Of a stretch of DNA of 64,000 nt, positions 13,029 through 64,000 are shown one piece after another. Position numbers and translations under genes: made by a program. Position 1 is the first letter of the stretch; each line of letters starts with the position of its first letter. Source of the stretch: Chiloscyllium plagiosum (Eukaryota). The stretch spans positions 62,030,459 through 62,094,458 of the forward strand of contig NC_057726.1 of assembly GCF_004010195.1 (NCBI RefSeq), in the 5' to 3' direction. Below the pieces are notes generated by a model. It was not told the origin of the DNA and made no database searches. It saw nothing but the letters and a program-made list of their open reading frames with translations.

Positions 13029-13130
13029 CCGACCGTACAAGATACTTTCATTTTCAAGATTACTAGTTGGACATTTTCTGGCATTGCTCACATCCACTTC
13101 AGCATAATGCACGACCTCAGCCAACTCTCT
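13029..13130 (-). CDS. Gene A exon 6, cytoplasmic ITIM exon RELAEVVHYAEVDVSNARKCPTSNLENESILYGR
   Basis: ccattcag|AGA ... CGG|gtaagt, 102 nt, phase 0/0. VHYAEV fits the ITIM consensus. A homologous 102-nt block exists in gene B at 53283-53384. Confidence 0.85.
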
Positions 13131-14327: not shown

Positions 14328-14438
14328 ATTCATTATTTTGCAGTCGACCTCTCTTCTTAATGATGATCAGTAGTACCAAAAAGATCACTCCAAACACGGC
14401 GCATCCAGGCACCCAGAAGTAATGTGAGTTAATACCGT
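14328..14438 (-). CDS. Gene A exon 4, transmembrane DGINSHYFWVPGCAVFGVIFLVLLIIIKKRGRLQNNE
   Basis: tttgcag|AC ... T|gtaagc, 111 nt, phase 1/1. A 20-aa uncharged hydrophobic stretch is followed by the basic stop-transfer KKRGR. Confidence 0.9.
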
Positions 14439-46544: not shown

Positions 46545-47468
46545 TTTGTTGACAATGATAGAATGAAGGATATAATAGAACATGAACCATAGATTATGGT
46601 GAGGATACAGCTGTGCTGCAGCTGACAGCGTACAATAACTTTTGAAGGTCTAATTTTGAGCTGTTAATCGCATTCTCAACCTACTACAGTTGCAGCACTA
46701 CAAAAAAAGAATAAGAGAAATCCTTAATATGAAGATCAAGCTTCAGAAAGACTCAGGCAAAAGACATGCCTTCTCAATAGTATCTGTAGAATTGTGCGAG
46801 GTGTTGAAATGTTGTTCCATAGACCTGTCAACAAACATTCCGACGTTGTGATACCCACCTATGGCTCACCTGTGCCTGCTAACATGTCAAAGTAAAATTT
46901 AACCAATACCACATGTGCGCTGTCCTACAGGGAGGATGCATGCATTGAAATTGCAATACAGTGTTATACAGAAGTGTATGGCTCTGTGATTCCTCAATAT
47001 TAAAATTGTACACCACGATGTTTTTTGAAATCAAGTCAGACACAGATAAAAACATATCCTGCTGAAATAACAACCTCTCACCTGATTCATATGTAACCCT
47101 ACATTTTGAACATAACGTCGAACAAACATTGAAAGTTACCAGTGCAGAGAACATATTGTGTCTGATCTTCCAGTTTTCAACTGCAAAAGCAGTTCGATGG
47201 CAGACTATTGACTGAGCTCCCTAATAATTTCCGCTGGGTTGAATAGGTCACTGCACAGTATTTGTGAAGACAAAGCTTAATCTTCATATTAAGGATTTCT
47301 CCTAGTTTTTTTGTAGTGCTGCAACTGTAGTAGGTTGAGAATGCGAATAGCAGCTCAAAATTAGACCTTCAAAAGTTATTGTACGCTGTCAGCTGCAGCA
47401 CAGCTGTATCCCCACCATAATCTATGGTTCATGTTCTATTATATCCTTCATTCTATCATTGCCAAACT
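46545..47468. repeat. ~190-bp inverted repeat pair (46552-46743 / 47274-47462)
   Basis: The two arms are near-perfect reverse complements separated by ~530 bp. Confidence 0.9.
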
Positions 47469-47893
47469 GCAGGTGGATTGACTCTAGCTGACTGAGGAAA
47501 GAAGATAAGTCGAGGTGTGTCTAAAACTGAGAAGCCAATGTTGTAACTTATAATAAAGTCGCATATACTGTGTACCAGCAAACATAACCAACATATTATA
47601 AACGGAGATTAGTCGCTCCCCATTACATCAACATTTCTGCAGTGCCGCTAATATCGTGTCAATGTTGTTACTCCTGAGTGATATGTATTTGTGCAGTATT
47701 TGTTGTTTATATTAATGATATAGAATCTAAACATAGGCGTCAAGATCAACAAGTTTGCAGCGGAAGCAAAATTGATTATGTACTTGACAACGAGGAGGAA
47801 AGACTGAAACAGCATGAAGATAGAGATGATTAGGCAGATTGTGCACAAAACTGAAAAATCCAATTAAGTCCAGAGAAGTTGAATCAGCGTTTT

Positions 47894-48900
47894 CTTCTGA
47901 GGTTCAATAGGCAGGAAATTCACAATGAATGAGAGGAGATTGTGTTGGATTAAGGAGTGCAGGGATCTTGCAGTGCATGTCCACAAATTGTGAAGGGTAG
48001 CAGGACAGATCAGCTTGGAGACTGATTTTAGTAAATATAAACCGAAACAACTGCAGGTGTTGTAAATCAGTGAGAGACAAATGCTGGAAAAACTTAGCAG
48101 ATGTGGAGAGAAATCAGAACTGAATTCTGAGGAAGGATCACTCGACCCGATATGTTAACTTTGGTGTCTGTCCACAGATGTTGATACACCTGCTGAGCTT
48201 TTCCAGCAATTTCTATTTTTGTCTCTTCACTTCTTATTCCCTTGTCAGCAACGTCAATATGATAATAACAACGATTGTGAAGAGTCTTTGAGTAAAAGAG
48301 CGCGGTGACTGTTAAGAACACGTGACGTGATGGTATCGATGATTTCTGTTTGATGTTTCCTGTATGTTCCGTTGTATAATATCCTCCTTCCCCTTCCCTT
48401 CTGAGGTTCAATAGGCAGGAAATTCACAATGAATGAGAGGAGATTGTGTTGGATTAAAGAGTGCAGGGATCTTGCAGTGCATGTCCACAAATTGTGAAGG
48501 GTAGCAGGACAGATCAGCTTGGAGACTGATTTTAGTAAATATAAACCGAAACAACTGCAGGAGTTGTAAATCAGTGAGAGACAAATGCTGGAAAAACTTA
48601 GCAGATGTGGAGAGAAATCAGAACTGAATTCTGAGGAAGGATCACTCGATCCGATATGTTACTTTGGTCTATGTCCACAGATGTTGACACACCTGCTGAG
48701 CATTTCCAGCAATTTCTATTTTTGTCTCTTCACTTCTTATTCCCTTGTAGGAACGTCAATATGATAATAACAACGATTGTGAGGAGTCTTTGAGTAAAAG
48801 AGCGCGGTGAATGTTAAGAACACATGACGTGATGGTATCGATTATTTCTGTTTGATGTTTCCTGTATGTTCCGTTGTATAATATCCTCCTTCCCCTTCCC
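47894..48900. repeat. Tandem duplication, period 504 bp
   Basis: cttctgaggttcaatagg begins at both 47894 and 48398. The units differ by scattered substitutions and small indels. Confidence 0.9.
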
Positions 48901-50210
48901 CTAAGCACAAAGTGCATGGATCGCTGATGTTTTACCTCACAACCTTCTCTCTCCGCTTGCGGAGGCCTTTGCTCATTACTTTTTAGCCATCATTCCCGAG
49001 TCACCTCCTGAACAAACTCCATCAACATTAAAATGAAATGGTTGTGGATATCGGATATCTGAAACAAAACAATAACGGTAGAAAAGATCAGGAAATCTAA
49101 TAGTATCTCTAGAGAGAAGCAAAGTTAATATTTCGAGTCTGATGTTGTTGAAGTAGTTTCCACCCACAGAGCATTATAAGTCAAACCCTCCCTCTCTCTA
49201 CAGTTGCTGCTGGACCTGCTGACTTTCTTCAGTAATTTCTGTTTTATGTTTTAACGGTTTTCCATTCAATAGAAGAATTCACCGATGGTTGAAATCAGGA
49301 AATATCTGCTTTTCATAGCCCAGTTTTGCCTGTGATTTTGTTGCTTGCATTACCCTGAGTGCCATGCTGATGAAAACTGGAAGATAATAAATGGTAACAT
49401 CATGAATACAAGAAAAAGCAATTTATGTCAACATTAGGGAAACATTGAAATGGAATTGTATTACTGCAGAAGTGTAATTATTTGCAAATCAATTTAAGTA
49501 TTCTACAATGCCTAATGGCTACCAATCCTCTCCATCGCCCTTTTTCTTTCTTCCAAAGGTTTACATACAAGGTAATATCGTGAGAAAGATGCTGATTACA
49601 CTTTGTGCTGGTTAAACTCTATTACATGCTTTACCTCTGAAGCTCAAACTTTAGGATCATATTCTCGCTGATGTCTGGGGTTCGTGATAACAGATGTGAT
49701 TGTTTTGCACCTAACATATGGAAAGCACTTATCAATACAAAGTCTTAGTTTGCTTTGGAGTAAAGTGTCCACCTGGATCAAACGTTATGGGGCTATAGGA
49801 GGTGGTGAACACTCATTTCACCCTCCCTAACCTCCTGCAACTTATCAGAAGAAAAATCTTCCGGAAATCAACTCGTCCATTGGAACACCACCGCACAGTA
49901 TTTCTGCCACTCACATGGGATTATGTTTGGAATTTGGATTCTACTTGTTGCTATATTAGTTCTGTCAGCACTCAGTAGTAGGTACAACAGGAAGAAACTG
50001 ATTATGGCTGCTGCAGAAAGTTGAGTCTCAGGATTTTACAGTGGGGAGGGATCCTCACATCCAACGATGTGTGAGAAGGGAGCGGATGTCTGGTTCTGTT
50101 GATAGACTGTGCAGCACAAAGGTGGATGGCATATTGGAGGACGGCCCTGGATGTACGTTCATATGCCCAATGGCACAAGCTGCATAGATATTTTAGAACC
50201 CCTTCGGATT

Positions 50211-50785
50211 AAGACCATAAGACCATTAGAAATAGTAGTGAAAGGCTATTCGGCCCATCGAGTCCTCTCCACCATTCAGGCATGGCTGATGGGCATTTCA
50301 ACGCCACTTACCCGCACTCTCACCGTATCCCGTAATTCCTTGTGAGATTAAGAATTTATCAATCTCTGCCTTGAAGACATTTAACGTCCCAGCCTCGACT
50401 GTGCACCGTGGCAGTGAATTCCACAGGCCCACCACTCTCTGGCTGAAGAAATATCTCCTCATTTCCATTCTAAATTGACCCCCTCTAATTCTACGGCTGT
50501 GCCCATGAGTCCTAGTATCCCTGCCTGATGGAAACAATTTCTCAGTGCCTACCCTTTCTAAGCCATGCATTATCTTGTAAGTTTCTATTAGATCTCCACT
50601 CAACCTTCTAAACTCTAACCGGTGCAATCCCAGGATCCTCAGCCGTTCATTGTATGTTAGGCCTTCCATTCCAGAGATCATCCGTGTGAATCTCCACTGG
50701 ATACGCTCCAGTGCCAATATGTCCTTCCTGAGGTGTGGGGCCCAAAACTGGACAGAGTATTCTAAATGGGGCCTAACCAGAGCTT
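50211..50785 (-). mobile_element. CR1 LINE 3' fragment running into a gap
   Basis: RRLSGDLIETYKI..THGH..WNSLP; closely similar to 23021-23808. Confidence 0.9.
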
Positions 50786-51461
50786 NNNNNNNNNNNNNNN
50801 NNNNNNNNNNNNNNNNNNNNNNNNNNNNNNNNNNNNNNNNNNNNNNNNNNNNNNNNNNNNNNNNNNNNNNNNNNNNNNNNNNNNNNNNNNNNNNNNNNNN
50901 NNNNNNNNNNNNNNNNNNNNNNNNNNNNNNNNNNNNNNNNNNNNNNNNNNNNNNNNNNNNNNNNNNNNNNNNNNNNNNNNNNNNNNNNNNNNNNNNNNNN
51001 NNNNNNNNNNNNNNNNNNNNNNNNNNNNNNNNNNNNNNNNNNNNNNNNNNNNNNNNNNNNNNNNNNNNNNNNNNNNNNNNNNNNNNNNNNNNNNNNNNNN
51101 NNNNNNNNNNNNNNNNNNNNNNNNNNNNNNNNNNNNNNNNNNNNNNNNNNNNNNNNNNNNNNNNNNNNNNNNNNNNNNNNNNNNNNNNNNNNNNNNNNNN
51201 NNNNNNNNNNNNNNNNNNNNNNNNNNNNNNNNNNNNNNNNNNNNNNNNNNNNNNNNNNNNNNNNNNNNNNNNNNNNNNNNNNNNNNNNNNNNNNNNNNNN
51301 NNNNNNNNNNNNNNNNNNNNNNNNNNNNNNNNNNNNNNNNNNNNNNNNNNNNNNNNNNNNNNNNNNNNNNNNNNNNNNNNNNNNNNNNNNNNNNNNNNNN
51401 NNNNNNNNNNNNNNNNNNNNNNNNNNNNNNNNNNNNNNNNNNNNNNNNNNNNNNNNNNNNN
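50786..51461. other. Assembly gap (676 N)
   Basis: Run of N. Confidence 1.
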
Positions 51462-52771
51462 GCGCCCACGTGTATTGCTATATTTTTAAATTTAGAACTG
51501 ACATGCGAGCATTGAAAGAAGATCAAAATAGTCCGACTGCAAATTTGGCTAAGTAAATTGTTCTCGCTTCTATTTACTACGTGCATGCTTGTAGCTAAAA
51601 CGAGAAAGCTACAAACCCGAGCTGATCTTTAATGACTTATCAGAAGCCTTCAGTGTCGCTTGGTCAAAAAACTTGAAGGGCCATGCTAACAGCACTTTTA
51701 ATATAGCCTCAGGACTGCAGTGGTTCAAACAGTCCAATACCACGTTCTCCACAGCAACTGGGGATGCTTGCTTAGCTAACGATGCCCAGTCCAATGAAAA
51801 ATCTAGACAGCCAATATAATTGCATTTTACCTTCTGTGAATAAAGTGCTACTAGTTCAATTAATTATGCACGAAAATTGTTCACCTTATTTTGTTTATAT
51901 TGTGAAACACCTGCTTCTTTTTACGTGAAAACGTGAAATCATAAGTAAATTTTTCTATTAAAATTCACTCGTGGAATGAGGGCATCTCTGGATAGATAAA
52001 AAATTATTGCCCATTCCTAATTTGCCCTTCAGAAGGTTGTGTTGAATGGCTCGCTTGAACCGCTGTAGTCCGTGTGCTATAAGTAGACCCATTATGCAAT
52101 TATGGAGGAATTTCAAGCATGTTGGCCAGTGACACCGAAGGATCAGGTCATTTGAACTTTGGTTTTAATTCTTTATATCATTGTCACGTGTACTTAAGTG
52201 CAAAAGTACAGTACTGTGAAAAGTGTATAATGTAGCCACACAGGTACCATCTTCGATACAAGAGCGTACGTACAAAAAAAAACATAAGAACAAGGTAGAG
52301 AGAAAGCTCAAAGTTTAACGTTGCATTAAAAATGGTAGAGCATTCAGCTAACAAATATGATAGATTTCCAAGTCAGGGTGGTAAGTGACTTGGATGGGAA
52401 TAAGCAAAGGCTGGTGTTCCCATGTATCAACAGCCCTTGATATTTGAGATGGAAGTGGTAGTGGGCTTGGAAGGCACTAAGGCAACTGAGACATGTTGAC
52501 AGTTAATGCATGGCGACTTACTAGCATTTTTATCACTCTTTTCAAATAAAGGTTCTTACAGTAAACAGAGCTAAACGAGTTTAATTCTCATGATTTTTCT
52601 TTTTAAAAAGGCAGACCCTTCTTTATTTGCCAAACAGAGATATTAGAAGAAACATCAAATACAATATATGATGGTAAAGAAACAGGCGCCTCTTGTGTTT
52701 AATAAGAAATGAAAAGCTCACTATAGGCTAATGTTACGAGGTAAAGAATAAATGATTTGCATTACAAAATA

Positions 52772-53271
52772 NNNNNNNNNNNNNNNNNNNNNNNNNNNNN
52801 NNNNNNNNNNNNNNNNNNNNNNNNNNNNNNNNNNNNNNNNNNNNNNNNNNNNNNNNNNNNNNNNNNNNNNNNNNNNNNNNNNNNNNNNNNNNNNNNNNNN
52901 NNNNNNNNNNNNNNNNNNNNNNNNNNNNNNNNNNNNNNNNNNNNNNNNNNNNNNNNNNNNNNNNNNNNNNNNNNNNNNNNNNNNNNNNNNNNNNNNNNNN
53001 NNNNNNNNNNNNNNNNNNNNNNNNNNNNNNNNNNNNNNNNNNNNNNNNNNNNNNNNNNNNNNNNNNNNNNNNNNNNNNNNNNNNNNNNNNNNNNNNNNNN
53101 NNNNNNNNNNNNNNNNNNNNNNNNNNNNNNNNNNNNNNNNNNNNNNNNNNNNNNNNNNNNNNNNNNNNNNNNNNNNNNNNNNNNNNNNNNNNNNNNNNNN
53201 NNNNNNNNNNNNNNNNNNNNNNNNNNNNNNNNNNNNNNNNNNNNNNNNNNNNNNNNNNNNNNNNNNNNNNN
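52772..53271. other. Assembly gap (exactly 500 N, probably a placeholder size)
   Basis: Run of N starting just downstream of gene B's ITIM exon. Confidence 1.
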
Positions 53272-53282
53272 CTCAGATCTAC

Positions 53283-53384
53283 CTAAATATACACAGTTCT
53301 CATCTTTTCAAGTTTGAGCCTTGGAGTTTTCGTTTTTCTGTTCAAATCCAGCACAGCGTAATGCATGACCTCAGAATCTACTCC
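53283..53384 (-). pseudogene. Gene B decayed ITIM exon (GVDSEVMHYAVLDLNRKTKTPRLKLEKMRTVYI*)
   Basis: Colinear 102-nt homolog of gene A exon 6. The acceptor position (53386-53385) is CG instead of AG, and the last codon before the gt donor is TAG. Confidence 0.75.
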
Positions 53385-53983
53385 CGACATTGGTGACAAA
53401 TAAAAATATTTTTTGATTGGCAAGTCTATTATACTTAGCAGTTATCTTGTGCAAATTATAACACTTTGATCGTGAAACATATGTGATGTAGTCTGGACGC
53501 TGCAACAAATAAGTAAACCCATCAACGTTGATACAACGTGAGTGCTTTGGGAATGTTTACATCAAACAAAATGGTACAACTTAAAATTTCTTTTCAATTC
53601 CCAAGTATAGAGGAATTTGCCATTTAAAAATATTTTCAGTGCAATGAGCATCTTTAATCTCTAATAACGTGTCAGTTATATTCCCAGCAAAACCCTAAGT
53701 AGCAAATAAACATCCATAAAATAAATTAAAAGTGTTCTGAAGAAGAGTCACTGGACTGGAAACATGCTCTTTTTTTTCACCACAGATGCTACCAGACCTG
53801 TTACGTTTATCCAGCAATTTCAGTTTTAAATAACTTACATACCGGACATGATTATCTTAGTGAGACTTGGCAAATATTTTTTACGAAACTGTGTTAAACT
53901 GTCCTGACATAGTTGTGGGTTGAACATTCCATTATAGCATTTTTTTTTGATGCAGGTATTTCGACATTAACGAATAGACATAC

Positions 53984-54027
53984 CATCTCCCCACCGTGGT
54001 TTGCTCCAGCTACAGCGTCCTCTTTAC
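53984..54027 (-). CDS. Gene B exon 5, cytoplasmic (G)KEDAVAGANHGGEM
   Basis: tttccag|GT ... ATG|gtatgt, 44 nt; homolog of 13648-13691. Confidence 0.82.
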
Positions 54028-54660
54028 CTGGAAACAAATAAATTGTAATGGAAAAATAAACCGTTACACAGATTTAACGTCGGAGATTGCAACGTCAAAG
54101 TCAGAAAAATGCCGAAATTTTTAAGTTTGCAATGTGAGGAAAGTTATTTACTAATAAGTTTTATAATGGTCAGCAAGTATTTGATTTTTGGTTTGACGTT
54201 TACTTTTTGAAAACTGCATAAATCCAGCACACAGTAGTACGGCAGGACATTGTATTTAAGATTGAGGATTAGCCATGATGTTTTGCCTTTTGGGTTTATA
54301 GTCAACTTTTGCAACAATTTCTAAAATACACACTGCAAGATATACCCTCATCAGAATTGCACATTGAAACTAATTCTGGCTGTAAATTTCAATTTGGAAA
54401 GTGATTTATTCATGTACCTGGCATTTATTATATCGCAAACGTGATGTTTTTTTCAAAGCAAATCTACGCAATTATTTCCATTTTGATTACAAATGTAAAA
54501 GCTTTCTATTGTAAGCGCATTTTAAATATCCTTGCCTGCCCTCCAACATCTCTCCCAAAACAAAATTTAAACAATTTCAATTCTTAATCGCTTTCACTTT
54601 CTCCTCTGTTACCTAATTCTGATGCTTGTTATAACATCAAAGGCTTAAAGTAGATCTTAC

Positions 54661-54768
54661 CTTTAGTATTCTTCAGCTGACAGCACACTCCAATTACAAT
54701 AATAAGGAACGCACTACCAGCCACCGCACGAATGAGAATCCAATGATAATGTGACTTCTGAATATTAT
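54661..54768 (-). CDS. Gene B exon 4, transmembrane with Arg: DNIQKSHYHWILIRAVAGSAFLIIVIGVCCQLKNTK
   Basis: cttgcag|AT ... AAAG|gtaaga, 108 nt, phase 1/1. Aligns with the gene A TM exon (SHYxW...AVxG). Confidence 0.88.
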
Positions 54769-56204: not shown

Positions 56205-56860
56205 TAATTAAAAAGCAACCAACACCAGATTATAGCCCAACAGTTTTATTTGGAAGTACTAGCTTTTAGAGCGCTGCTCTTTTGGCAGGTAGGTAGTGAG
56301 GCAGTAGCATGCAACACAGAATTTAGAGCACAAGATCATAGTATTATGCAACTGATACGCTATATTCAATATTCAGTGTATCACATCAGATTGGATTACA
56401 GTGTGGAAACAGGCCCTTCGGCGCAACAAGTCCACACCGACCCACGAAGCGCAACCCACCCATACCCTACATTTGCCCCTTACCTAACACTAAGGGGAAA
56501 TTTAGCATGGCCAATTCACCGAACCTGCACATCTTTGGACTGTGGGAGAAAACCGGAGCACCCAGAGGAAACCCACACAGACACGGGGAGAATGTGCAAA
56601 CTCCACACAGTCAGTCGTCTGAGGCGGGAATTGAACCCAGGTCTCTGGTGCTGAGGCAGCAGTGCTAACGACTGTGCCACCGTGCATGACACTATGACCT
56701 TGTGCTATGAATTCTGTGTCTTATGGTCCTGCCCCACTAGCTCCCTGACGAAGGAGCAGCGTTATGAAAGCTAGTACTTCCAAATAAACCTTTTGGACTA
56801 CAACCTGGTGTTGTGCGATTTTTAACTTTGTACACCCCAGTCCAACACCGATACCTCCTC
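56205..56860. mobile_element. Penelope-derived fold-back element with an HE1-like SINE inserted (56389-56684, minus strand)
   Basis: The arms are reverse complements. The SINE is absent from the duplicate copy at 61318-61680. Confidence 0.75.
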
Positions 56861-56946
56861 AACATATCTTCATCATAACATTACGTATAGTGTATCTATG
56901 AACTGAATAGTGCATGTGTCTCCTTCTTATGTTTTAACTTTCATAC

Positions 56947-57258
56947 CTTGGTTAGATTCATAAAATGTATAGGTGATAACAGTTGGTGACCTCAGTGAGA
57001 CATGAGATACCGAACAGCTATAATTGGTGCCGCTCAGGACAGGTCCTGTCTCAACCAAAAAACTGGAAACTTCATACAGTCCCTCGGTGTTCTTTATTTT
57101 ACTAGTATTGGTTCTTAATGCAGTTTCAACGCCATTTTTATACCATGTAAGGGAGAAATTTTCCGGATAAAATGCAGCCGTTTCACACTTTAGTGTTAAA
57201 GAAGTGGAGGAATTCCCTTCGGATAGCCTGGAGCCAGTGATCGTGGGTGTTGGGGCTG
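56947..57258 (-). CDS. Gene B exon 3, Ig C1-set domain
   Basis: ttgcag|CAG (NAGNAG acceptor) ... CAAG|gtatga, 312 nt. LTLKCETAAFYPENFSLTWYKNG..NTEGLYEVSSFL..NYSCSVSHVSL; about 54% identical to gene A C1 with no gaps (hand count 56/104). Missed by the ORF track. Confidence 0.93.
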
Positions 57259-57973
57259 CTGCAAATCACAGAATAAAAAAGTCATTACGGCACAATATTG
57301 AGAAACAAAAGCATTTAACTTCTCATTTTCGTTCGCTTTATACTTTCACAATAGGTCTTATTAATTCTAAACTCTTATCATTTTAATTGTCACACCTCAT
57401 GTATAGCGCACGTTAGAAATAAATGGCATATTGTCAATTTTATTAGGTTGTAAAGTTTAAGGCTTAAAATTACTCACTGCATGAGAGGCAACAATTTGCT
57501 ACCCAACGTTTAGTTTACAAAGGCGTAAGCCTCGGTGAGCAAGTTGTTGAGCCAAGCCTTTGTGCATTAAATGATCAGTGATTTGCACGTTCTTCGTGAA
57601 GTGGTTTAACTGTGTCGGCATAGTTCTCTATCAGACCATCACAATTTATGCAATATACTTTGTTCATTTGAATATCAGGAGATTTCAGCAATAAGTCTGT
57701 CTATGTTATATTAATTGCATGTCAACATTTCCATTATTGAGTGAATCAGTCAAAAGTCAGCTGCCACACTTGCATCCAAATCCTCACACTATCATCGCCT
57801 TAGATATTCTTTATCTAATTACAGTTGAATACAAAAAGCTTGGATTTACAACTAACATGCTGAAAAATACATTAATAGATATTATATTGCTGAGAAAAAT
57901 GCACTGAATAGTCACTTCACATCACTGATTAATATAATGCCGCATGTCTTTTTCTCCTATATTTCAAACTAAC

Positions 57974-58294
57974 CGTACACAGTTAAACGCGATCCGGTTC
58001 CATTGCCTTTAACTTCTCCCTGGCGGATCACGGTGCAGTGATAGATTCCAGCGTCTTGGATTGTCACACCCAGCAGCTGAAGGAAACCGCTTGCTCTACT
58101 TGCCATCCCAAACCTCTTTCTCTTGTCTGTGCTTGTACGCAAGTATTCATTCTCGGCATGTTTCCACCATAACACCCGTACCCAGGTTTGGTCGTTCGAG
58201 AGAGGAAATATGCAGTAGAAGGTGGTACTCTCTCCTCTGAGAACTTTCGCTTCTTCAGGTGCTTGAGACACAGTGAATGAAGTGTGGTCCGCAG
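57974..58294 (-). CDS. Gene B exon 2, VJ-type Ig V domain
   Basis: tgctag|CT ... TACG|gttagt, 321 nt. DHTSFTVSQAP..FYCIF..LWWKH..LQLLGVTIQDAGIYHCTV..KGNGTGSRLTVY; about 47% identical to gene A V with no gaps (49/105). Confidence 0.93.
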
Positions 58295-58453: not shown

Positions 58454-58508
58454 CTGTCCGACCAGTGGTCCAGAAAATCAGGCACAGAAGCACCGTTTTT
58501 GTTCTCAT
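58454..58508 (-). CDS. Gene B exon 1, signal peptide MRTKTVLLCLIFWTTGRT
   Basis: ATG at 58508, CAG|gtgtca (weak donor), 55 nt, homologous to the gene A leader. Confidence 0.8.
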
Positions 58509-60037: not shown

Positions 60038-62626
60038 ATCACATAAATGAATAAAAAATGTGGTGGAACCTGAGCGAAAAGTAATCTTCTGCACGTTTGA
60101 TTGTTTAAGCTGGTGGTTTCACCAACCTCGCTTTAGTTAACTACACTAAAAATGAATAAATTCAACATGCTATTTGAAGCCAAGCTACGCAAAGTAAATT
60201 CTTCTCCGAAAAGGTGAAATTTCCTTGACTCATTTGGAAGTGGCCTATGGTTTAAGAGTTTAAAATGTGAGACGAATCAATATCCCATAAGCAAACGGTT
60301 TGCACTTGTTCTTAGAAATCCTCACAGTGGAAGGACATTTGAAGATTTTTGAGCAGTATTTCCTCCTTGCCTGCAAAAATTGTAAAATACAGCAATCGAT
60401 TACAACTCACCTTCTATTATCTTAACTGGTCTTACCAGCACCAGAATGACATTGCCGCTAGACAAAGTCACCATCGTCTTATCAGATTGTAGAGTTTTCC
60501 TATCACTGGTGAGAAATGATTGGAGATGTCTTAAGCTGAGGGTCACTACGCCTCAGGCAGGGAGAGAGATTAAGAAATAGAGTCCTATATTAGTAACCTT
60601 AGCTGGTGTGAGAATTCAGCCCAAGCTTCTTTGGTCCCAGAACACTACTAGTCAGCTGTCCAGCCAACTTGAGACAATCGGCCAACATTGGAGCCAAGCA
60701 AATGTTAACAGCAATGTGTTTGTTTACCCACATAAACGAACTAATGTATCACTCAATTGAAGACCAATTAGGGATGTGCAATAAGTGCTGGTCTTGCCAG
60801 CAATGTCTATATCCCATAAAAGAATTGGGCACAAAATGTAGCTGGTCGATTTCCTCACTGAAACTTGTTGAAAACACAATGCATTGAACAGAGCACACTG
60901 TAACGAGTTGTGGGCACAGTTTAAATGGAAATACATCAATCACATCCCCGTTAAACATTTTCAGAACTTGGCAGTTGAAGTTAAGCAGGCGATTAATTTC
61001 AGACTTGTTCACGGAAAGCATTTGGGGCAGTATTAGAACTTAAATTCCGAAAGGTCATTTCACAGATTCATCCCTATAGCTGTTGCCGATCGTCCTGATA
61101 CAAGAAAGAAAACATGGACAAAATAATAGAGTAAGAAGTAGAAACTTTGTTTACTATTGCTGCATCAGCAACAAAAGGAATTTGGTTAAACCAAGCAAAT
61201 TTCAATATCTGGCAATACACCATTTTCGTTATGCCCAGATTGAATTCTATTGCAAAAGTACAGATTTAATGTATTTTAACAATATTTTCCACGATCCTTC
61301 CACGGACTGTCTCCATAATTAAAAAGCAACCAACACCAGATTATTGCCCAACAGTTTTATTTGGAAGTACTAGCTTTCATAGCGCTGCTCTTTTGGCAGA
61401 TAGGTAGTGAGGCAGTATCATATAACACAGAATTTAGAGCACAAGATCATAATATTATGCAACCGCTATGATATACTCAATATTCAGTGTATCATATCAG
61501 TTGCATGACACTATGATCTTGTGCTATGAATTCTGTGTCTTATGGTCCTGCCCCATTAGCTCCCTGACGAAGGAGCAGCGTTATGAAAGCTAGTACTTCC
61601 AAATAAACCTGTTGGACTACAACCTGGTGTTGAGCGATTTTTAACTTTGTACACCCCAGTCCAACACCGATACCTCCTCAACATATCTTCATCATAACAT
61701 TACGTATAGTGTATCTATGAACTGAATAGTGCATGTGTCTCCTTCTTATGTTTTAACTTTCATACCTTGGTTAGATTCATAAAATGTATAGGTGATAACA
61801 GTTGGTGACCTCAGTGAGACATGAGATACCGAACAGCTATAATTGGTGCCGCTCAGGACAGGTCCTGTCTCAACCAAAAAACTGGAAACTTCATACAGTC
61901 CCTCGGTGTTCTTTATTTTACTAGTATTGGTTCTTAATGCAGTTTCAACGCCATTTTTATACCATGTAAGGGAGAAATTTTCCGGATAAAATGCAGCCGT
62001 TTCACACTTTAGTGTTAAAGAAGTGGAGGAATTCCCTTCGGATAGCCTGGAGCCAGTGATCGTGGGTGTTGGGGCTGCTGCAAATCACAGAATAAAAAAG
62101 TCATTACGGCACAATATTGAGAAACAAAAGCATTTAACTTCTCATTTTAGTTCGCTTTATTCTTTCACAATAGGTCCTATTAATTCTAAACTCATCTTTT
62201 TAATTGTCACACCTCATCTATAGCGCACGTTAGAAATAAATAGCATATTGTCAATTTTATTAGGTTGTAAAGTTTAAGGCTTAAAATTACTCACTGCATG
62301 AGAGGCAACAATTTGCTACCACCGTTTAGGTTTACAAAGGTGTAAGCCTCGGTGAGCAAGTTGTTGAGCCAAGCCTTTGTGCATTAAATGATCAGTGATT
62401 TACACGTTCTTGGTGAAATGGTTTAACTGTGTCGGCATAGTTCTCTATCAGACCATCACAATTTATGCAATATACTTTGTTCATTTGAATAGCAGGAGAT
62501 TTCAGCAATAAGTCTGTCTATGTTATATTAATTGCATGTCAACATTTCCATTATTGAGTGAATCAGTCAAAAGTCAGCTGCCACACTTGCATCCAAATCC
62601 TCACACTATCATCGCCTTAGATATTC
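60038..62626. repeat. Direct segmental duplicate of 54933-57808
   Basis: Near-identical throughout apart from scattered SNPs and indels and the missing SINE. Similarity ends at gccttagatattc, followed by a CR1-type 3' tail (62627-62690). Confidence 0.95.
61766..62077 (-). CDS. Gene C (or other haplotype of gene B) Ig C1 exon
   Basis: By eye, nucleotide-identical to 56947-57258 with intact splice sites. No V, leader or TM exon for it is visible in the window. Confidence 0.75.
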
Positions 62627-64000
62627 GTTGGACTGAAGGGTCTGTCTCCATGCTGAACATCTCTATGACTCTATGACTTTATGACTCTAAAGACAGAACT
62701 TTTTATTGTTATGATCAAGGATTCGACTGACAATCTCAGTGCGATTGCCACTCTTCAGTTAATCTGCATCACTGAGACTTAAAATAAATTGCGAACACTT
62801 CAGATGGAAGAAATGAAAATATGTACTATGGATTGATGTTATGATTGGACCAGTGAAATAGCAATGCCACTATGCCAACATCTGCAAGAGGACTGAATTG
62901 TTCGCAGGGACATGTGATCAGATATAAGAGTAAACCTATGCTTATGAGTGAGGCCATGTGTTCGTGGACTTTGTTCATCTGGAGACTGCCATCCACAATT
63001 TTCCACACTGTGGGAAGAGGCGAGGAATCCATTATGATCGTTGTTTTTTAATTCTACCTGCCTCGGAATTGCCAGTTTGTGCAGAGTGCAACGTGCCAAT
63101 ATCATACATGAGGCACTTAGCAAGGTACTTTGCACTGCTACCCAGAATCTGTAAATATTGCTCAATATTGCCATTGTAATCAGATTGCAACTATTGCACA
63201 TGATATCTGTAAATATTGCCTTTGTTTAAGGTCGAAAATCTAATCTTACAATTCAAGGAAAAATGAAGAGATAAAGCACTGAAGTGTAAGTCGGGAAGCC
63301 TGACATCACCTATGCTATGATAGAAGAATGTTCACAGGTTTTAAAATAAAGCTTAGCATTTTAAGGCAGAATTAACACAGATTTATAAAGTGGAGTCGAG
63401 TTTGAAAATACATAGGCTCATTGTTTTAGGTTCTAACAAATGGGGTGATGTAGATAAAACCTTTCCAAAACGACCATTTGGGTTTGTAAAAACAAACAAC
63501 CAAAATGCTGTCATGTGAGAAGGTTTTGCTTAATTGCATAAACAGAGGGTGTGGAAATGGAGTATTGTATTTGAGGGTATTAAGAGATAGGGGTTAAATG
63601 GGCCGTAAAGATTGGCACGTTGTACTTACTGTGGATTCATAGGGATTAAAACTTGGCCCTAGCAATTTACAATGCACATCAGCAACACACACAAAGAGTC
63701 TTATTGTAGTATGCCTATGTTCACTGCTGATACAACGCTCGATGGCAAACCTTTCAGGAGGAAATGAGGTAAATGATGAAACAACTGAAGACGACTCGAT
63801 TTAGAATGATGTAATGTCGAACAGTTACACTGATCCTTGCCACAGTGAGTCAAATGCTGCGTTGATGGAAAAGGCAGCCATTCTTAGCTATCATCAGGTA
63901 TTCAGAATGTTTTCTCCGTAAAGGCTGAAAATTTTAATGAGGTCAGGAGCTGGAGGTTCTGTGCTGGAACAAAATTGGACATCAGTGAGCAGATTGTTGC

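Follow-up and report, generated by a model that had tools for sequence, protein, structure and literature searches.

Activating KIR and Ly49 receptors derive from inhibitory homologues, as set out in a KIR study that also describes KIR2DL4 as a long-tailed KIR with activating function and states that the order of charge gain and ITIM loss could not be resolved (PMC2213150). For CD89, NKp30 and NKp46, an outer position of the transmembrane (TM) arginine has been described; shifting this Arg by one residue in CD89 abolished assembly, and in a featureless helix the placement of Arg alone can suffice (PMC13107469). NCR3 is described as MHC-linked (PMC12227049). The shark locus considered here, gene B, reads as a V-C1 membrane receptor gene with a TM Arg and a broken ITIM exon, and the initial annotation took it for an activating receptor derived from an inhibitory ancestor.

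Gene B lies on the minus strand of the window, the 64,000-nucleotide stretch of the shark genome that was analyzed (G000:C17:62030459-62094458). A leader exon (58454..58508, with an ATG at 58508, an open frame and a GT donor) that probably encodes a signal peptide is followed by an intact V-set exon (57974..58294; Pfam V-set E 6.6e-08) with a joined J-like end, GNGTGSRLTV, an intact C1-set exon (56947..57258; Pfam C1-set E 2.1e-11), a TM exon (54661..54768) with canonical splice sites that is two residues shorter than in most homologs, and a first cytoplasmic exon of 44 nt (53984..54027) that ends in phase 0. All five exons are open and bounded by AG/GT sites. PDB searches with the gene B V domain, with one homolog and with a 12-sequence V profile returned generic Ig matches only.

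For the family as a whole, 137 C1 matches were obtained in the genome, with the strongest in two clusters on chromosome C17, at 61.5-62.3 and 68.9-70.7 Mb. The loci covered comprise most C1 neighbourhoods of the first cluster and two loci of the second, which belongs to the same family and has over 20 C1 matches. In sharks, rays and one chimaera, homologs encode V, C1 and TM segments and up to six tail tyrosines. The TM and tail were scored in 75 of 110 C1-bearing proteins, the others being 30 without a scorable TM (including the Arg-bearing P0013) and five removed by hand as isoform duplicates or fragments. An ITIM- or ITSM-like motif is present in 3 of the 17 homologs with an outer-TM Arg versus 39 of the 58 without it (Fisher P 5.4e-4, calculated on related, non-independent rows that are gene models), and the annotated rule that gain of a TM charge goes with ITIM loss is real in this family. 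In a quick C1 tree of 51 rows, Arg-TM genes repeatedly pair with non-Arg genes, with 12 label changes, at least seven of them forced by strong branches. By hand count in the examined part of the 61.5-62.3 Mb cluster, none of five genes with Arg at the usual column (-1) has an intact last-exon ITIM, and nine of ten non-Arg genes have an ITIM-type tail exon. By these sequence comparisons, gene B lies in a large cluster of paired activating/inhibitory receptors, where similar ectodomains go with opposing TM and tail types. A second Arg-TM lineage, the IxRL type (IARLIL...), is represented by broken TM exons at L002:3352-3461 and L061:4316-4402 and is intact in P0002, P0019, P0055 and P0089. P0020 of Scyliorhinus torazame has two V domains before C1; it may be an artefact of gene-model fusion or a genuine V-V-C1 form.

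Gene A, which had been used as the counterpart of gene B, is not its nearest relative, as their V domains are 47% identical versus 89% at the protein level for gene D (C17:61.97 Mb, plus strand; L009:1069-4510), the nearest relative in the genome; the same value rules out gene A as a direct ancestor. The TM exon of gene A (14328..14438, minus) has Gly-Cys and no Arg, and its 102-nt ITIM exon (13029..13130, minus) has an intact AG. The distal ITIM of gene A is also lost, since its last exon (window 12321-12260, minus) has an in-frame TGA as codon seven (IRQATV*), directly ahead of MTYTTL; VHYAEV and a split ILYGRI are kept. Gene B is sister to gene D in the C1 tree (SH-aLRT 91). Gene D has Arg in the usual TM column of the family and a TM resembling that of Scyliorhinus P0008, no ITIM tail was found at its locus, and it is likely an old activating-type gene. 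The best matches of the TM exon and 102-nt exon of gene B are Cys-TM, ITIM-tailed proteins of Heterodontus and Heptranchias, and the ancestry of gene B is therefore read as inhibitory. Comparison with other sharks and rays, where the nearest outgroup proteins have a Cys-TM and multi-tyrosine tails, supports this part of the initial annotation, and gene B probably used to be the inhibitory counterpart of gene D, the Arg-type member of the pair.

The TM exon of gene B (54768-54661) reads HYHWILIRAVAGSAFLIIVIG and that of gene A HYFWVPGCAVFG, in agreement with the annotated contrast of Arg and Cys. The Arg codon, CGT (54728..54730, minus), encodes the fifth residue of the best 21-residue hydrophobic window, an outer position, yet it lies in the Cys column of the family, one residue deeper than the usual Arg. 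Across the 75 scored homologs this column has Cys in 40 and Arg in one, in a doubtful alignment; the usual Arg, one column earlier (outward), is found in 15 of 75. A single T-to-C change suffices for the codon, and the Arg probably arose by that change separately from the Arg of gene D. A zeta/gamma-type TM exon is present in the shark genome (G000:C12:49769721). When the TM peptide of gene B was modelled in complex with two shark zeta/gamma-type TM copies, the score was 0.08 (mark 0.34; controls not folded), which counts neither for nor against assembly. Because the Arg is one residue deeper than usual, the odds that it may recruit a dimer of the FcR-gamma/CD3-zeta type are put at about even.

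The 102-nt ITIM exon (53283..53384, minus) reads ...VMHYAVL...RTVYI* and is still recognizable as annotated from MHYAVL and TVYI; it is a true homolog of a Heptranchias exon, with 19 of 32 residues shared (59% identity, E 7.5e-10 among the proteins gathered here, which is not chance). Its two lesions are confirmed letter by letter, namely an acceptor CG (53385..53386, minus) instead of AG and a last codon TAG (53285-53283). A second copy of the gene B tail, on the unplaced contig G000:C17172 (95% identical), has AG at the acceptor, keeps MHYAVL, carries TAA in place of the second tyrosine and ends in the same TAG. As the TAG occurs in both copies, it predates the copy split and is unlikely to be an error; only the window copy has the CG. 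The exon had been called doubly disabled, and the two lesions are indeed real, but they differ in age and their effects may oppose each other.

Beyond the broken acceptor, inner AGs open the exon at 53380 (+4), 53377 (+7) and 53369 (+15). The first two behave as initially described, giving an immediate stop and the tyrosine-free frame ILRSCITLCWI*, respectively; the third was overlooked, and it keeps the frame and retains VMHYAVL and TVYI. A TAG acceptor 7 nt downstream of the intact pyrimidine tract is a good cryptic site, and the +15 acceptor is a weak GAG. Stops in the +4 and +7 products lie 95 and 59 nt ahead of the last junction, so that by the established 50-55 nt rule of nonsense-mediated decay these ITIM-free products would be decay targets, the +7 product only narrowly. 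With respect to ITIM content, the +4 and +7 routes are without such a motif, and skipping of the exon and the +15 route have one ITIM-type motif each.

What the skipping route would reach depends on the sequence downstream. The contig of gene B ends 12 nt past the 102-nt exon, at a gap of 500 Ns (52772..53271, minus) into which bases 1-729 of the unplaced contig G000:C92516 fit by homology. When both contigs are laid on the uncut second copy, the first base of C92516 directly follows the end of the gene B contig, and over bases 730-2036 it is homologous to the part of the window on the far side of the gap. Bases 185-268 form a last exon with a CAG acceptor, a weak pyrimidine tract (0.47), the canonical ITIM VTYAIV and a stop before a decayed ITSM; in Heterodontus P0003, the last exon matches it at 13 of 24 residues. 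No other such exon was found in the assembly. This one came from a DNA search, whereas a protein-level search for the last exon of gene B returned four paralogous exons and missed C92516. Skipping of the broken exon would be in frame, as the last exon of C92516 starts in phase 0, and in database models P0001 and P0015 the last exon follows the first cytoplasmic exon directly. Sequence identity of C92516 is 99.7% with the copy at C17:62.167 Mb but 96% with the window sequence past the gap, and its exon is therefore that of gene B only if the gene B contig sits in the gap of the 62.167 Mb arm, a placement that would fit the layout of an inverted duplication. On this evidence, the exon likely belongs to gene B.

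The copies of gene B look like arms of such an inverted duplication, the alternative being two uncollapsed haplotypes. Mirrored arms are present at 62.100-62.114 versus 62.152-62.167 Mb (90-97% identity), and window 46765-52771 mirrors 62.167-62.173 Mb. The same two readings, inverted duplication or uncollapsed haplotypes, apply to the larger region formed by C17:62.077-62.114 and 62.152-62.173 Mb together with the unplaced contigs C17172, C92516, C58972 and C67889, and the scaffold order at window 51-63 kb may mix two copies. Two tandem units of about 505 nt, 97% identical, occupy window 47894-48900, and a portion of this stretch is found again at C17:62.190 and 62.172 Mb.

Taken in the order suggested by the two copies, a CAG-to-TAG change would first have cut the tail after the near-ITIM MHYAVL, turning the last exon into 3' UTR, with subsequent loss of its ITSM. 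Duplication of the locus would have followed, and then the change of AG to CG in the window copy, leaving the exon to be skipped or entered at an inner AG. Decay would thin the +4 and +7 products, those of the skip and +15 routes would escape it with one ITIM-type motif each, and the Arg may, at about even odds, recruit a dimer of the FcR-gamma/CD3-zeta type. An ITIM-keeping product is favoured because only the skip and +15 routes would escape decay. The most stable mRNA of gene B is accordingly predicted, with a confidence that falls somewhat short of even, to skip the broken exon and regain the downstream ITIM, making the product a mixed-signal receptor of the KIR2DL4 kind or a weakened inhibitory receptor. 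There is precedent in the family for Arg and ITIM in one protein, in P0045 of Mustelus, although the combination is uncommon (3 of 17), which counts against the dual reading. So do the weak pyrimidine tract of the last exon, the weak +15 acceptor and the good cryptic site at +7. P0045 (Mustelus asterias XP_078066431.1) has an outer-TM Arg and the ITIM LAYASL and is a dual-type model in another shark.

The closest rival, somewhat unlikely but to be taken seriously, is that gene B is an inhibitory gene losing its function in a birth-and-death cluster, with an incidental Arg and a product that is absent or signal-less. Lesions have accumulated, namely a stop, the lost splice site, a deletion of two TM residues and a broken ITSM, and broken family members are close by; near gene B these include a V exon with a stop at C17:62.098 Mb and TM exons with stops. 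Between gene B and C17172, 8 of the 102 nt of the ITIM exon differ and all eight differences change the protein, but in five of the seven changed codons gene B has the residue of the homologs and the other copy does not. The open leader, V, C1, TM and first cytoplasmic exons, with their AG/GT sites, also argue against decay. No full-length B-like protein was found in protein-database searches, which is weak evidence. The low ectodomain dN/dS of gene B versus gene D (V 0.17, C1 0.31) is in line with the ITIM-keeping reading, but it sums over an ancient divergence and is barely informative on the current state of gene B. A second copy of the C1 exon with its flanking introns lies at 60038..62629 (minus; 95-98%), with no V exon found upstream, and the C1 exon is identical between these copies (0 of 318 nt differ, versus 82 of 2266 in introns). 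This identity would speak against decay, but the identical tract is 515 nt long, spanning the C1 exon and running into both introns (window 56815-57329 versus 61.6-62.2 kb; introns differ by 3.6%), so that selection is no better an explanation than gene conversion or an assembly merge. The tract may be due to any of the three, and the identical C1 exon was rejected as proof of selection.

Less probable than decay is the outcome foreseen by the initial annotation, in which the Arg binds a zeta/gamma dimer and the transcript passes through the +7 or +4 AG to a short tyrosine-free tail. It draws on the fifth-residue Arg, which matches the outer position in CD89, NKp30 and NKp46 (PMC13107469), on the association of outer Arg with ITIM loss in the family, on the same route documented for KIR and Ly49 (PMC2213150), and on two neighbours with an Arg and a stop within the last-exon ITIM. 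Nevertheless, an activating-only receptor does not follow from the inhibitory ancestry, because an ITIM-type motif survives in the two in-frame routes, the ITIM-free products are decay-prone, and the Arg, made by one T-to-C change, stands in the Cys column, one residue off, a shift that abolished assembly in CD89 (PMC13107469). The neighbours in question are two Arg-TM genes with the TM motif SRWAGG, at C17:61541745 and 61647770, each with a fossil last exon downstream (L066:2290-2130 and L067:330-170, minus; C17:61.533 and 61.637 Mb) whose acceptor is intact and whose ITIM is interrupted by a stop (LAYAT*). A switch from inhibitory to activating would fit these genes better than it fits gene B.

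The fuller scenario, decidedly improbable as a whole, combines a non-MHC V-C1 family of sharks and rays with many inhibitory-to-Arg-activating switches and a recent independent switch in gene B, where loss of the acceptor suppresses the older stop, brings the silenced ITIM exon back in frame and makes a dual receptor resembling KIR2DL4. It is very improbable that a consensus error or a private variant accounts for the CG, for the Arg codon or for both: each rests on a single contig, the CG lies 113 nt from the contig end in a region with gaps and near-identical copies, the other copy has AG and the assembly holds only one copy of the TM exon, but the TAG, nearer to the contig end than the CG, is found in two contigs differing by 5%, and the copies differ at evenly distributed sites (31 of 852 intron nt), as real paralogs do.

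The second, intact brake exon on the unplaced contig C92516 is likely that of gene B, and the gene would then be a receptor of mixed signals, or one in decay, and not a clear-cut activator. Taken alone, gene B is of moderate interest, because its mechanism is known and decay is nearly as probable as function. It is a new instance of that mechanism, in a shark family that appears to have been little described. Repeated origin of activating receptors from inhibitory ones is a rule established with mammalian KIR and Ly49, and the shark cluster shows the same pattern in cartilaginous fish. It also holds readable intermediates, namely stable pairs, Arg genes whose fossil ITIM contains a stop, and gene B, whose lesions are of two ages, and thus offers a testable series for the order of charge gain and ITIM loss. 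No published description of this cluster was found in a literature search that covered main texts, mostly outside subscription journals; the main text of PMC7677710 has no match for SIRP, NCR3 or NKp30. A shark NCR3 paper may already describe these genes.

Among the known systems, gene B resembles activating KIR and Ly49 in its inhibitory ancestor, its gain of a TM charge and the stop or exon loss in its ITIM tail, and its family resembles theirs in repeated origins and in ectodomains common to both partners (PMC2213150). The stop inside the ITIM of the SRWAGG genes parallels that of short-tailed KIR, which, unlike gene B with its Arg, use Lys and DAP12; in macaque KIR3DH loss of exon 8 shifts the frame and removes both ITIMs, whereas the skip in gene B is in frame and would regain one (PMC2213150). 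CD89, NKp30 and NKp46, which bind zeta/gamma dimers, share the outer-TM Arg (PMC13107469, PMC6514059), and CD89 reads QNLIR where gene B likewise reads LIR. Gene B differs from these three in having V and C1 domains, in possibly keeping an ITIM and in lying off the MHC class I chromosome. Like NCR3/NKp30, it has a non-rearranging VJ domain in one exon, but human NKp30 has a single V and no C1 (PMC6514059); shark NCR3 subtypes with C1 are possible. The MHC linkage of NCR3/NKp30 is not shared, since all MHC class I matches placed on chromosomes are on C37 and the receptor cluster is on C17; an MHC class II search gave no match and is uninformative.

The SIRP alpha/beta receptors share a J-type V followed by C1, tails with tyrosine motifs and paired forms, and many database homologs bear automatic SIRP-like names. 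The SIRP ectodomain is V-C1-C1, SIRP-beta1 has a central TM Lys, and the SIRP neighbourhood is conserved with NSFL1C. In contrast, each gene of the gene B family has a single V and a single C1 (the additional C1 at 61-62 kb, upstream of the gene B V exon, is a segmental copy), and the Arg is at the top of the TM. Human SIRP-alpha was the fourth PDB match of a homolog, no better than antibody chains, and SEP-domain matches, which may bear on the NSFL1C neighbourhood, are at two loci, on C20 and C4 rather than C17. Because one defining feature of each is lacking, a second C1 in one case and location on the MHC class I chromosome in the other, the family is filed under neither SIRP nor NCR3. If the skip product is made and C92516 supplies its last exon, gene B would combine a basic TM residue and an ITIM in one chain, as does KIR2DL4, whose Arg links to FcR-gamma. 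The likeness is in how the receptors work and is not homology: the KIR2DL4 ectodomain, of C2-type Ig domains, is unrelated to that of gene B, which would arrive at the same combination by bypassing its own stop codon.
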